Of a stretch of 64,000 nt of DNA, positions 17,423 to 60,270 are shown one piece after another; the stretch's first letter is position 1; each line of letters opens with the position of its first letter. The stretch is from Octopus sinensis (taxonomy: Eukaryota), in assembly GCF_006345805.1 (NCBI RefSeq), contig NC_043002.1, forward strand, positions 88,350,001-88,414,000. The letters are read 5' to 3'. A program made the position numbers and the translations under genes. The notes beneath the pieces were generated by a model. It was not told the DNA's origin. It saw only the letters and a program-made list of their open reading frames with translations, and did not search any database.

Positions 17423-18865
17423 CCTGGCCGCCCCACTGTCTCCGCCTGCAACTGCCCCACCAAAATCGTCAGTTATCTTGACTGTGTCCTTGCCCCACTA
17501 GGGCTTCCCTCCTCTCTCATGGTCTTCGTCTGTTCAACTCTTTCTCCTTCCCTCATGGCCCCTCTAAACTTCCTCTTCACTCTTGACGTCAAGAGTGATC
17601 CCTCACCACGAGGGGCTTTGTGCACTCCAACATTACCTTGACCTTCGAACCAACCCCCAACCTGATACATCCACACTTCTCCATCTGGCCGAACTTGTTC
17701 TCTCCCTTAACTGCTTCTCGTCTGCGGGTGATTTTTACCTGCAGGTCCCGGGAGAGGGCATGAGAATGAGAATGGGACCCAACTATGCAAACCTGTTTAT
17801 TGGTTTGTTGAGGCCCAAATATTCTCAAGTTTCACTGGTCCCACTCCCAAACTATATGGTCGTTATATTGACAACTGTATCAGTGCAACCTCACTCTCCA
17901 GCAAACAACTAGACTCCTTCCTCTCTTTTTTCATATCTTTCCATCCTGCCCTTGACATTTTGATCAGCATTCATCACTCCACTCTCACCACCTCCATCAA
18001 ACACACAGACTCACACTCGTGCCTCAACTTCTCCTCCTCCCACCCTCCAATTCCCTATTCATTCCCTATTCTATTCTCTCCAGTCCCTATTCCCAATTCC
18101 TCCATCTGTACAGGCTCTACAGTGACAACCATGACTTTAAGACTCAGTCTCAACTCATGGCTCACCACTTCATCCTTTGTGGATATCCCCTCACCACTAT
18201 CCACACCGCCCTTGCCAGAGCACATTCCATGGACCGTGCGTCTGCTCTCTCCCTCCCACACCTGCCCCGCCACCACCCGTCTCCCATTTCCCCTCACCTA
18301 CCACCCCTCCACCCTATCTCTCCAACGCACCATTCTCCAAGCCTTCCGGCGACTCAAGTCCGACCCCTCCATCTTCCCTAACTGACTCCTCCCCTCCTTC
18401 AAACAAGCCCACAATCTAGGTGACCTCAGTCCAAAGTTTCTTCCCTATCCCAACCTCCCGACCTGGCTCGTTCCCCTTCTCCCACCCATACTGCCGCACT
18501 TGCCCTTACCTTTCCAACACCACCATCCTCACAGGGACCCTATCATATCACTGACTCCTTCACCTCCACTTGTAGGAACATCATCAACTGCATCTCCTGC
18601 TCTCTGTCCTCTGTACATTGGTCAAACGGGACACTGCTTGGCTGACCAGTTCACAGAACACCTCCAAGACATCAGTCTCGGCAATGACACCCCGGTCTCA
18701 CACAATTTCCGCTCTACCGGTCAATCTTTATAACACTGGTCTGTGTTCAGATTGTCCTTGCACAGGTGCCATCCGGACTCCCACCTTCACCGTGAACAGG
18801 AATTAATCTTCTCTCTTCGCTCTTTTGTGTCACATGGGTTCAACACTCCTCCTCTCTTCATCTAA
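17423..18865 (+). mobile_element. Penelope-like retroelement pseudo-ORF (RT plus GIY-YIG endonuclease), frameshifted
   Basis: Motifs PGRPTVSACNCPT, FLFTLDVKS, IPHHEGL, LAELVLSLNCF...FYLQV.G...MGPNYANLF, GRYIDN (RYIDD site) and LYIGQTG...LADQFTEH (YIG), spread over several frames. Confidence 0.9.
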
Positions 18866-20756: not shown

Positions 20757-21555
20757 ATATGTATATATATGTGTATATATATATACATAAATAACACCGA
20801 GAAGGAGATGCTTTTTCCTCTCACTAAAACGAATGGAGCTTTGGCCAGGAGGAACTGATGTCATCAGACTGCATCCAATGTTCATCAGGTATCTTGACCC
20901 TGAACTGTAACATCCTCCTGTTGGTGGGTCAGCAGAGGCAGCCAAATCATTGCTCATCATCTAAATACACACACACACATGTATATGATAGCTATACATA
21001 AGTAATGCTTATTGCCACTTTAATATGGCTGTTCTGTCAGAACTGATGTTACTATCATTTTAACCCCAGGAGGTTATTCAATGCACCCAATATATATTGC
21101 AGGCAGGGGAGTGAACCCCTACCATCTTCCAGCCACTTAGTTTCTATACATTGCAAGCTGGAGCAAACTACTGCTATCTCTAGCAGATAAGTATCCACGA
21201 CGAAGGATGAGCACAAGGAGCTCAAAACTATATGGTCTCATGGCCTTGTGGCTGTATTAGCTTGTTAATTCATTGGGAGTGAAGGACTCCTAGCCTTTGT
21301 TAGGGCATCCTTCTAGGAGGAGGTAACTCAGGTAACTGGGATAACTCCGAAATAAAACCTGCGGCTCAGTGGTTACTGATGATGTTGACTTGTTCTTCTT
21401 TGCGGATTATGGCTGTTGTTGCTTAGTGAGTGGGATTGACTCAGTGCACAGCCTTTCTTCACTTTAAAAAAAAATCTTCTTGCACAGGCATTGCACGATA
21501 ACAACATTGATTAAGCTTCATGCAATGGCCATACTCAATAACGAGGGGGCAGCCA

Positions 21556-21649: not shown

Positions 21650-22927
<1,278 letters not shown>

Positions 22928-24025: not shown

Positions 24026-24438
24026 ACATGGACATAAGTTCCCATATTTCTAATATAAGACTCTCTTATTTACAACTAGACACAATGTTTTACATTTTGG
24101 TAATGATGTGCATTGTCAAGGAAATCAGTTCCACTACACCACTGGATGGATGAAAAATAAAGTGGATCTTAACAAAACTTGAACTCAGAATATAAAGGAA
24201 GATAACTAAAATATTATCGAAATATTAAATTTTTAAATATCTCAGAGAGATATAAGCAGTTGTGGTACGATAGAATAGTTGTATACTGTCAACTTAATGT
24301 GACAGTCCCATGAAGGGAATCACACCACTGCTATTTAGCCCTAGGAAGCATCAATGCTTCCTGCCACCCTTGACACATTTCCTGTGTCCTTATGTTTACA
24401 AGGGGGAGATAAGCATCTCCACCTGGCTAAGCCTACAT

Positions 24439-24474
24439 CCAGAGACTTGTTCCTGAGTCTTTGCTCATCATCAG
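24439..24474 (-). ncRNA. Minimal type I hammerhead ribozyme-like motif (degenerate mirror copy)
   Basis: Minus strand CTGATGA-TGAG CAAAGA CTCA-GgAA-CaAG-TC-TCTGG: intact CUGAUGA and stem II, mutated GAAA and stem III; the 5' stem I strand is disrupted at the inversion loop. Confidence 0.65.
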
Positions 24475-24484
24475 TCATGCTACT

Positions 24485-24525
24485 CCAGATTGATGACAAG
24501 CAAAGACTCAGAAACTAGTCTCTGA
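24485..24525 (+). ncRNA. Minimal type I hammerhead ribozyme-like motif (degenerate copy)
   Basis: CCAGA-tTGATGA-caAG CAAAGA CTCA-GAAA-CTAG-TC-TCTG: stem I CAGA/TCTG, GAAA core, palindromic stem III ACTAGT, GUC site at 24518-24520. C3 and two stem II bases are mutated. Confidence 0.7.
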
Positions 24526-24879
24526 ATGCAGGCTTAGCTGGGTGAAGGTGCTTGTCTCCCTCTTGTAAACATAAGGTCACAGGAAATGTGTCAAGGCCGA
24601 CAGGAAGCATTGATGTTTCCTAGGGCTAAATAGCAGTGGTGTGATTTCCTTCATGGGACTGTCACATTAAGTTGACAGTATACAACTACTCTAAAGTATT
24701 ATCACTTTTACTAATCTGCCATCTTTCTACAATAATACAACAGGAAATACCTAAAAGGTTATGTGAAAGTTTAGTTACGCCCATAATATCTCATTGAGAA
24801 CATTTAAAAGATGTGGTTAAAAAGAATCTACCACAGATATGTTTGCAATATCACAGATATTGTTTTTATTGCTATCACT

Positions 24880-33004: not shown

Positions 33005-34687
33005 AAACCCCTCTACATAGCTTTCGTGGAGTTAGAGAAAGCCTTTGACAGGGTCCCCTGATCCCTTATCTGGTGGGCGATGTGGAAACTGGAGATTGAC
33101 GAATGGTTAATAAGGGCTGTACAGGCCCTATACATAGAGGCCGTCAGCAAAGTTAGGATTGGCAATGAGTATAGTGAAGAATTCCAGGTAGAAGTAGAAG
33201 TCCACCAAGGTTCAGCCCTCAGTCCCCTTTTATTCATCATAGTCCTCCAGGCAATAACAGAGGAATTCAAGACAGGTTGCTCCTGGGAGCTCCTCTATGC
33301 TGATGACCTGGCCCTCATAGCAGAATCACTACTGGAACTAGAAAAGAAATTTCAGGTGTGGAAGCTAGGTTTAGAATAAAAAGACCTTAGAGTCAATGTA
33401 GCAAAGACCAAAGTTATAGTAAGTAGAAAGGCGAACTCATCACACACCCCTTCAGGCAGGTGGCCCTGCTTGATTTGTAGAAAAGGCGTAAGTAGAAACT
33501 CCATAAGATGTACCCAGTGTAAGCTATGGATACATAAGAGGTGCAGCACCATCAAAGGAAAATTAACCGAGAAGATAGCTTTTGTGTGTGGCAGATGCAC
33601 AGGTGCAATAAACACTATTGATACTCAGAAAACAAATTCCATTACACTCCTGAGCGAGAAACTAGAAGTAGTTGATAGTTTCCGCTACCTAGGTGACCAA
33701 GTTAGTAGTGGGGGTGGATGCTCAAAGAGTGTTACCACTAGAGTAAGAATGGCCTGGGCAAAGTTTAGAAAGCTCCTACCGCTACTAGTGACAAAGGGTC
33801 TCTCGCTCAGAGTGAAAGGTAGATTGTACGACACATGTGTGCGAACTGCTGTGCTTCACGGTAGTGAAACATGGGCTGTGACTGCAGAGGACATGCGTAG
33901 GCTTGAAAGAAATTAAGCTAGTATGATCTGCTGGATGTGTAATGTCAGTGTGCATACGCGACAGAGTTTAAGTGCCCTGAGAGATAAGAAGCATTGGATG
34001 TGGTGTGCAAGTGAGATGGCTGTGCTGGTATGGTCATGTACTACAGATGGATGAAGCGAGATGTGTGAAGAAGTGTCACTCCCAAACAGTTGAAGGAATC
34101 TGAGGTAGAGGTAGACCCAGGAAGACATGGGATGAGGTGGTCAAGCATGATCTTCGAATGTTGGGTCTCACAGAAGCAATGACGAAAGACCGAGACCTCT
34201 GGAGATATGCTGTGACTGTGAAGACCCGACAAATAACATGAGTTTATGGCTGCTTCCTGCACCAGCTTCACATAGAAGCCCCAGCCCATCCAAAGTGTCT
34301 TGGATTGCAGGACAGCCTGCTGTGCTTGAGGAGACCAATTGAGTCAAGTATATCAACATCAAAAAATCAAATGGAAATTGTTGTGATACCTGTGCCAGTG
34401 GCACGTTAAAAGCACCATCTATATGCGGCTTCTGTGCCGGTGGCACGTAAAAAGCACCAACCAATCGTGGCCATTGCCAGCCTCCCCTGGCACCTGTGAT
34501 GGTGGCATGTAAAAAGCACCCACTACACTCACGGAGTGGTTGGTGTTAGGAAGGGCATCCAGCTGTAGAAACAATGCCAGATCAGACTGGAGCCTGCTGC
34601 AGCCTCCTGGCTTCCCAGACCCCGGTCGAACCGTCCAACCCATGCTAGCATGGAAAGCGAACGTTAAACGATGATGATGATGATGAT
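33005..34687 (+). mobile_element. 5'-truncated RTE-clade LINE (RT core through 3' tail), pseudogenised
   Basis: LEKAFDRVP, VHQGSALSPLLFII, ELLYADDLAL, PHD finger, FRYLG, LHGSETW and GRPRKTW motifs with in-frame stops; (GAT)n tail. Confidence 0.95.
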
Positions 34688-58237: not shown

Positions 58238-58945
58238 TGAGGGGAAGTCAAAAATTATTCACACTTTCGCCATAACATCTTTATTACTGTCACACTGCCT
58301 TTTGCTCAAGTGTGCTTATAGTTGGTACTATTGCGGTCATGTGATCAAAGTTTGAGCCTTATCACACCACTTTTCTTTCTGGTTTTACCACTAGCAATGT
58401 GCACCAAAGAAGAACAAAGAGCAGTGATCCGATTTCTCTGATTGGAAGGCATGTCAGGTGCTGAAATTCATCAGAGTCTTTTAACATAATATGGGGACAA
58501 TGCACTACCACGTAGAAGTTAGTATGAAGGGACTGAGAAGTTTAAAAGTCACTGGACAAATGTGACACACGAAGAGGGAGCAGGACGCCCATCAACCTCC
58601 ACCACTAACAAGATTCTGCAAGCTCAAGAGATGGTGATGGTGAACCGGTGAGTTATGATCAATGTGGTCGCTCATTCTCTGGAGATTAGTCATGGTTCAG
58701 CATATCATCCACAATGAGCTCGACTTCCATAAAATCTGTGCAAGACAGAGAATGGAGAGGAAACATCCTGGCTTGCCAGTGATGAAAAAATTCAAGACTC
58801 ACTATTCTGCAGAAAAAGTGATGCTAACCATTTTTTGGGACTCAAAAGGGCTTCTACTGGAAGACTACCTGGAAAAGGGATGTATGATCAACAGTGCAAG
58901 ATACAATGCTTTGCTGGCCAACGAACTGAAGCCAGTAATTCACAC
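58238..58945 (+). pseudogene. Mariner transposase relic (irritans/Hsmar2-like), internally deleted
   Basis: TA-TGAGGGGAAGTCAAAAATTAT terminus; TKEEQRAVIRFL, GRPSTST and SAEKVMLTIFWDSKG...INSARY motifs. Confidence 0.85.
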
Positions 58946-60270
58946 CAAACACTTGTGGGAGAACCTGAAATCAGCCATCCTTAAGACATCTATGGAAGTT
59001 CTCGGGCACACAAAGAAGAAAAACAAGGACTGGTTCGATGAAAATGACAAGGAGATCCAGAAATTACTAGCAAAGAAGAGGGCAGCTCCTCAGGCCCACC
59101 TCGCACAACCAGCTTGTCCTGTAAAGAAATCTACCTTTCGATGCACATGCAGCACCCTACAGTGAAAATTCAGAGAAATGCAGAACGAGTGGTAGGAGCA
59201 CCTGGCGTGGAGAACCCAGCTGTGCGCTGACCTCGGAGACTATAGAGGCTTCTATGAGGCTCTGAAAGCAGTGTATGCCCCACCCACCTGGTCCAGAGTC
59301 CCCTGCACAGTTCAGATGGACAGAACCTCCTCACTGATAACACTTCCATCCTCGCTCGCTGGTCCAAGCACTTCCAAAGCCTCTTCAGTGCTAACCGTAC
59401 CGTACAGGATGCTCAACGAACCACCTACCCTCGAAGAAACGATTGAGTTGCAAAGAAGCAGGACTTGACGGCATCCCACTAGAAATCTGGAAGAATGGAA
59501 GTCCGATGCTCCATAACAAGCTCCATGATCTTCTTGTCTGCTGCTGGGAGCAGAGCAAGCTGCCACAGGATCTTTGCGACGCCGTCATCATAACCCTGTA
59601 CAAGAACATGGGTGAAAAGTCAGACCTAGAGGGCCGTGGTTCTCACCACTCTTCTCTATGGCTCAGAGACCTGGATCACTTACCGCAGTCACATCCGTCT
59701 CCTCGAGCGCTTCCACCAGCAATGTCTCCGCACCATCCTCAACATTCACTGGAGTAACTTTGTCACAAAAATTGACGTCTTGGAGCGGGCCGAGATCCCC
59801 AGCATTGAAGCCATGCTACTAAAGTACCACCTCCGATGGGCAGGGCATTTCTCCAGAATGGAGAACCATCGCCTTCCTAAGATTGCCCTGTTTGGTGAAC
59901 TCTCCACCGGCCACCGTGTGAGAGGAGCTCTGAGGAAGTGCTGCAAAGACTGCCTCAAGAAGTCTCTAACAGCATGTCATATTAACCACCAATGCTGGCC
60001 AGACCTGGCTGCGGACCGTGATGTCTGGTGCCACACGATCTTCAACGCAGTCAGCAAGTTTGAGGAATAAAGAAGAGACGTGCTTAAAGACAATAGACAC
60101 AGGAGGAAGGCACGAGCCGCCTCTGACACCACACTGGATGTTACCTTCATCCGTGGACACTGCTCACGGACCTGCCTTTCCCATATTGGACTTGTCAGTC
60201 ATGAGCATGCATGCACACAACGTGGACAGCCTTCCTGATCTTCGTTCAAGAAGCCAAGCCATGATGATGA
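58945..60270 (+). mobile_element. RTE/BovB-like LINE with the RT core deleted, C-terminal zinc-finger remnant and (ATG)n tail
   Basis: KNKDWFDEND.EIQ and AGLDGIP.EIWK...IITLYK.MGEKSD joined directly to VVLTTLLYGSETW...LRWAGH..RM...RLPK; HCSR.C.S.IGL.SH; tail GAAGCCAAGCCATGATGATGA. Confidence 0.92.

Follow-up and report, generated by a model that had tools for sequence, protein, structure and literature searches.

A decayed head-to-head insertion of hammerhead-bearing, retrozyme-like monomers in the genome of Octopus sinensis

What kind of element is a long fold-back with a hammerhead ribozyme motif on each strand at its apex, and is the back-to-back arrangement of the two motifs special? The question is raised by an inverted repeat (24266–24476 and 24488–24698; arms of 211 nt each, 90% complementary) in a 64,000 nt stretch of the Octopus sinensis genome (contig NC_043002.1, positions 88,350,001–88,414,000), referred to here as the window. 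A sequence-only reading had described a hairpin whose arms reconstruct a complete minimal hammerhead, and had proposed a retrozyme-like or Penelope-derived element. The locus is very probably a decayed head-to-head insertion of two 5′-truncated copies of a dispersed 351 nt hammerhead monomer, a non-LTR retrozyme whose insertion was likely a single event carried out by the enzymes of a Penelope-like retrotransposon.

The insertion and its two ribozyme motifs

The features of the locus are listed in Table 1. The hairpin with a hammerhead motif on each strand was confirmed, and both motifs read as first written. The extent first given (24271–24693, 420 bp) is correct at its right end and too short, the tail of the left arm having been missed. 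The locus is not tandem, and the whole insertion has a predicted fold-back energy of about −352 kcal/mol.

Table 1. Features of the insertion in the window.
Feature	Position	Strand	Details
Whole insertion	24216..24693	.	478 nt; two 5′-truncated monomer copies, head to head
Left arm	24216..24476	-	monomer 146–351 plus tail; 93.5% identity to family-1 majority
Tail	24216..24270	-	55 nt (monomer positions 1–55); left arm only
Right arm	24476..24693	+	monomer 134–351, without tail; 95.9% identity to family-1 majority
Inversion junction	24476..24476	.	1 nt common to both arms
Left hammerhead	24438..24476	-	junction leaves 2 nt of stem I 5′ strand; core A13 changed (24452); stem III palindrome broken (24448)
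Right hammerhead	24484..24526	+	core C3 changed (24490); stem II G lost to CpG decay (24498); stem I pair lost (24525)
Target-site duplication, left copy	24206..24218	+	12/13 identical to 24691–24703; 3 nt overlap with element end
Target-site duplication, right copy	24691..24703	+	pairs with 24206–24218

Each copy of the ribozyme carries one core change together with stem damage, in keeping with the earlier suspicion that both are impaired, and both are predicted to be dead. A read-through RNA would be expected to form a hairpin that hides the two motifs. With both motifs mutated and expected to be trapped in the fold-back, the locus is predicted to be a fossil. The cut predicted from the GUC of the right copy falls after 24520, the position that the sequence-only reading had expected. 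A strict hammerhead descriptor gave no match in the window because both copies are mutated. Scans with the Rfam models likewise detected no hammerhead, whether in the whole window, in the isolated apex or, at E values up to 10, in an intact relative (L012), and returned only hairpin and microsatellite noise, so that the case for a hammerhead rests on structure and family evidence.

Several other repeat-derived pieces lie in the window. A weak match to the monomer profile (21004–21074, minus strand; E = 0.005) is possibly an old relative of the monomer, and a decayed frame at 17732–18385 resembles a Penelope-type reverse transcriptase (RT) by eye, without a Pfam hit. Two PHD-finger LINE-like fragments (21653–22381 and 33380–33916) and a mariner-type transposase fragment (58659–59165) are repeat-derived frames.

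A dispersed family of 351 nt monomers

The locus is one member of a dispersed family (family 1) of a known kind of element. With the right arm as query, the 2.7 Gb, repeat-rich genome yielded 2989 first-look candidates, matching at 92–95% in the best 40 of the 2989. Exact matches numbered 62 for the intact 35 nt ribozyme core, 189 for the 3′ 35-mer, 86 for the motif just after the ribozyme and 671 for a core pattern spanning two families; each reversed control gave none. The period of the monomer, fixed by a tandem locus, is 351 nt. Two ribozymes per arm are rare in this family, L029 and L242 being the examples, and long family-1 arrays were not encountered. An intact copy is predicted to fold into a long rod that bears the ribozyme at its tip (z = −6.5). 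Family sequence occurs in contigs of four runs, which carry no strand, end or expression information, and none of the listed records holding family sequence is an RNA record. A literature search, confined to papers and with repeat databases outside its scope, found no description of the 351 nt family.

The anatomy of the insertions was examined at the first 100 of the 189 matches listed for the 3′ 35-mer, a set unselected for 5′ extent that comprises 92 loci and 145 arms (the first set); the median identity to the majority is 93.6%. The 3′ ends of the 145 arms fall into two fixed classes, at about monomer position 351 or about 55 nt beyond it, and the 5′ ends are spread over the monomer. Nineteen of the 145 arms are longer than one monomer plus tail. 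Head-to-head pairs occur in 46 of the 92 loci, and in 32 of these 46 a tailed arm faces an untailed one. After exclusion of 24 inverted loci with low-complexity flanks, a duplication of at least 9 nt was present in 16 of the 22 remaining, non-microsatellite loci, as against 7.6% in mismatched controls.

This combination of 5′ truncation, head-to-head inversion, one-arm tail and target duplication is that described, in passages of PMC8557442 and PMC3846280, for insertions of Penelope-like pseudo-LTRs (pLTRs). The pLTRs of endonuclease-bearing Penelope-like elements also share with the octopus copies the occurrence of partial tandems and insertion beside microsatellites. They differ in that the RT/GIY-YIG ORF is absent here, in the length of the tail (55 nt here, 30–40 there) and in the duplications, which are mostly 11–15 nt here by a measure that includes end overlap, compared with 8–10 in Penelope-like elements.

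Animal non-LTR retrozymes, as portrayed in parts of PMC7229834 (Cervera & de la Pena 2020) and of the preprint by Li, Clavereau & Pollet (10.64898/2026.07.22.740005), are non-coding monomers of 150–450 bp (350–390 in mussel) with a type I hammerhead. The octopus elements have a tandem monomer within that range with a type I ribozyme (351 nt; L029, L242, and L173 of family 2, below), lack a coding frame and are flanked by duplications of more than 4 bp. Tandem copies, a predicted self-paired RNA and co-existing Penelope-like elements are likewise common to both, as far as those texts go. The octopus copies differ from the retrozymes described there in being mostly shorter than a monomer, 5′-truncated and inverted, with long arrays rare. 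The sequence-only reading had expected that a genome-wide search would recover intact consensus cores, tandem copies or linkage to Penelope ORFs; the first two were found and the third was not. Its proposal of a retrozyme-like element is supported, and the anatomy is of Penelope type, with one-arm tails, inversion, duplication, fixed 3′ ends and variable 5′ ends.

Structure of the ribozyme in three families

Of the 63 family-1 copies that span the motif, 50 retain the full set of 11 core bases as well as the cut base, and the core positions differ from the majority in 2.2% of cases, compared with 5.1% pooled and a median of 3.5% elsewhere. The majority has both invariant cores intact, as had been inferred for the ancestor, and intact natural copies include L012. 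Two details of the earlier reconstruction need correction. In intact copies stem I is one pair longer than the 5 bp given, at 6 bp. A U-A pair had been placed at the base of stem II, but most copies have C rather than U after the core (C in 48 and T in 19 of 69), followed by G in 57 and A in 10. In the window the corresponding dinucleotide is CA in the right copy and TG in the left, the two CpG-decay products of CG, and is best read as decay of an ancestral CG, which makes the stem II base a probable C.A mismatch rather than U-A.

The term 'minimal' is also inapt. Minimal hammerheads, as set out in parts of PMC4209133 (Cervera & de la Pena 2014), have no loop 3, a long helix II and a helix I of 4–5 bp, and differ from the octopus motif with its 6 bp stem I, short stem II and a loop 3, which is nearer to the canonical metazoan type I.

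Two further families are colinear with family 1 and keep the ribozyme with different stem sequences. Family 2 (349 nt, 59% identical to family 1; 3287 first-look candidates, for example L173 and L139) includes at L173 a 3.5-mer array with three ribozymes. Family 3 is about 366 nt long and 58% identical to family 1 (2412 first-look candidates, for example L300:2346–3147 and L313–L342). In all 35 copies listed from family-3 loci, one of which belongs to a further family, U3-A8 replaces C3-G8. In an alignment of 13 hand-picked copies from the families, stem I is fully paired in 12 and stem III is palindromic in 10, as the sequence-only reading had it. The covariation score of these copies was 0.53 against 0.27 in shuffles and was reached in none of 500, counts that are not to be read as probabilities since the copies are hand-picked and related. 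Next to the core, families 1 and 2 have C.A and family 3 has G.U or A-U, and this position is unpaired in 7 of the 13; one position further out from the core an invariant G-C pair is found in 13/13. An unpaired stem II base may lower activity. Judged from sequence, compensatory changes, including that from C3-G8 to U3-A8, keep the predicted structure across the related families, and the assignment of the motif as a type I hammerhead is supported.

Several of these traits recur in the hammerheads of Penelope-like elements. Parts of PMC4209133 describe an extra base after A9, a palindromic stem III, action as a dimer and U3-A8; the octopus motifs share the extra base after A9 followed by G...C, the palindromic stem III, the occurrence of opposite-strand pairs and, as in Schistosoma, U3-A8. 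In Fig. S3 of the same paper, 1 of 56 rows carries an extra A before GAAA (machine-read, the row being uncertain). The stem II base, C.A in the octopus family, is U.U in the axolotl Amex2 ribozyme, according to a passage of PMC7229834. Further distinct hammerhead motifs were seen in flanking sequences (L058:3134–3178, L095, L116, L130, L191 and L329), which suggests that the Octopus sinensis genome holds more families.

Origin of the insertions and the question of a partner element

An autonomous partner was sought among the Penelope-like elements of the genome. One abundant, young and autonomous family of the RT plus GIY-YIG type (16463 candidates; L278:2104–4515, a tandem copy at L279, and L141–L170) has an 804-residue frame with RT, and no canonical hammerhead was found in its 3′ end. 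An older family, found via L037 (L286–L308), has its own, different hammerhead with a long stem II after the ORF, and opposite-strand copies. No homology to the monomer was found as the elements' own ends in 32 loci of one of these families and 30 of the other, and non-autonomy of the monomer is supported because neither shares ends with it. No autonomous element sharing monomer sequence was found, nor any RT plus GIY-YIG ORF between pLTRs, and the ORF hits in the vicinity of family copies belong to insertions of their own. A GIY-YIG frame beside L012 was rejected as a partner, being a separate insertion of the abundant family with an unrelated 3′ end. The family-3 tandem that follows an ORF remnant at L300 was also set aside, as it begins within a TA repeat and appears to have been inserted later. 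The link to a Penelope ORF that the sequence-only reading had anticipated was thus found neither at family copies nor in the two Penelope-like families examined.

It could still be argued that the monomer is the pLTR of an unseen autonomous Penelope-like element, and the copies its 5′-truncated ends. Tail, inversion and duplication are indeed those of autonomous elements, a passage of the preprint (10.64898/2026.07.22.740005) places retrozymes as sister to pLTRs in Xenopus, and the copies fetched are only part of the family. However, arms running past monomer position 1 enter another monomer rather than a common body, no coding frame is present in the monomer and no ORF lies at a shared position among copies, and families 2 and 3 form ORF-free tandems likewise; we regard this alternative as improbable. 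A MITE or foldback DNA transposon whose long terminal inverted repeats enclose a chance ribozyme-like centre would account for long inverted arms with a flanking duplication of about 10 nt, but symmetric fixed termini at both ends were not found in most copies. The tail sets the two ends apart, half of the loci lack an inverted partner, and the copies are 5′-truncated and partly tandem. Chance is also a poor explanation for a motif that covaries across families: the strict descriptor matches the family majority once and 20 of the 92 family loci, as against 1 match in 100 Mb of composition-matched random sequence, or 3.5e-6 per monomer. The asymmetric ends and tandem arms largely refute a DNA transposon, which is barely credible here.

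The sequence-only reading had drawn attention to the back-to-back ribozymes and to an inversion point at the ribozyme 5′ edge. That such a pair is selected or mechanistically fixed, through inversion at this edge or as a functional fold-back, is very unlikely. Both arms in the window do begin within 14 nt of the core, 13 of the 145 5′ ends of the first set cluster at monomer positions 128–139, and one arm of a family-2 pair begins in the same zone. But both arms retain the core in only 3 of the 46 inverted loci, the junctions fall across the whole monomer, and the arms in the window have diverged by 10% and carry core mutations each. A second set, made up of 86 arms at all 86 places of the post-ribozyme motif and partly overlapping the first, had 10 ends at 128–139 compared with 5.5 expected (P = 0.05); 3 of these were in common with the first set and 3 were the gag-like fusions described below, the only ones among the 86 arms. 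The preference for 128–139 is at most mild. Opposite-strand hammerhead pairs 100–700 bp apart are, moreover, already described in a passage of PMC4209133, and four opposite-strand neighbours among the matches to the core pattern, one of which was inspected, suggest intact pairs elsewhere. Ends at the cut site (positions 179–180) numbered 4 in the first set and 2 in the second, where 2.2 were expected; a cut-site signature was dropped as the excess was not repeated. In the 86 arms, cDNA 5′ ends are no more frequent at the cut site than expected, and no indication of cleavage was found in the genome. 5′ ends were scarce at monomer positions 106–126 (1 compared with 7.9 expected) and 153–164 (0 compared with 5.9), windows that were picked post hoc.

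A recurrent fusion was found upstream of the core. The 3′ end of a gag-like element, which has a weak zinc-knuckle match and ends with a motif like a poly(A) signal, is fused at positions 127–134 in 11 family-1 loci (L025, L030, L032, L033, L036, L039, L047, L060, L111:6388, L272 and G000:C5:90419949). In family 2 the junction lies 17 nt ahead of the core, at 7 loci of which one is only probable (L034, L035, L037, L040, L175, L187 and L190). Across both families the fusions lie 14–21 nt upstream of the core. Among the 30 best matches to the gag-like end, 7 are joined to family 1, of which the query included 18 nt, 4 to family 2 and 19 to neither. A check of 30 family-3 loci gave no gag-like fusion. 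Mapping of 14 distinct loci showed none with an upstream half of the retrozyme next to the gag-like segment; 2 of them carry a short inverted piece of retrozyme at that place. At L052:1666–2100, the gag-like 3′ end is joined directly to the apparent start of a related ORF-bearing element. Template jumping from the 5′ end of an RNA may have produced the fusions; a rival explanation is that a LINE made a targeted insertion. Tentatively, the families could record Penelope copying on a retrozyme template whose RNA would begin not at the cut site but at the base of the proximal stem, 14–21 nt upstream of the core, with an end-to-end jump of the RT from there to the 3′ end of an unrelated gag-like RNA. 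This reading is possible and somewhat doubtful.

For the non-LTR retrozyme inserted by Penelope-like enzymes, a course of events involving transcription, cleavage, RNA circles and these enzymes can be inferred as follows. Tandem source copies would be transcribed, and the type I ribozyme would cut the RNA, probably as a dimer via the palindromic stem III. A circular or multimeric RNA would serve as template, copying of which would begin at a fixed point, at about monomer position 351 or 55 nt further, and halt at variable points. The inversion would arise during retrotransposition, with a second, inverted copy made in half of the loci and the whole flanked by a target duplication of 10–15 nt.

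The locus in the window is an ordinary dead insertion, and its family a modestly useful example. The use of Penelope-like enzymes by retrozymes has been proposed from common ribozymes, co-occurrence and sequence kinship, according to parts of PMC7229834 and 10.64898/2026.07.22.740005, and the anatomy of the octopus family, with its one-arm tail, inversion, duplication and more-than-unit copies, agrees with that proposal. If the fusions do record Penelope copying, some 18 separate events in two families would mark where the RNA starts and demonstrate that a Penelope enzyme jumps between templates. The recurrent fusion point gives a way of testing a retrotransposition mechanism that a passage of PMC8557442 calls still undefined, and the three families provide natural ribozyme variants for cleavage assays.
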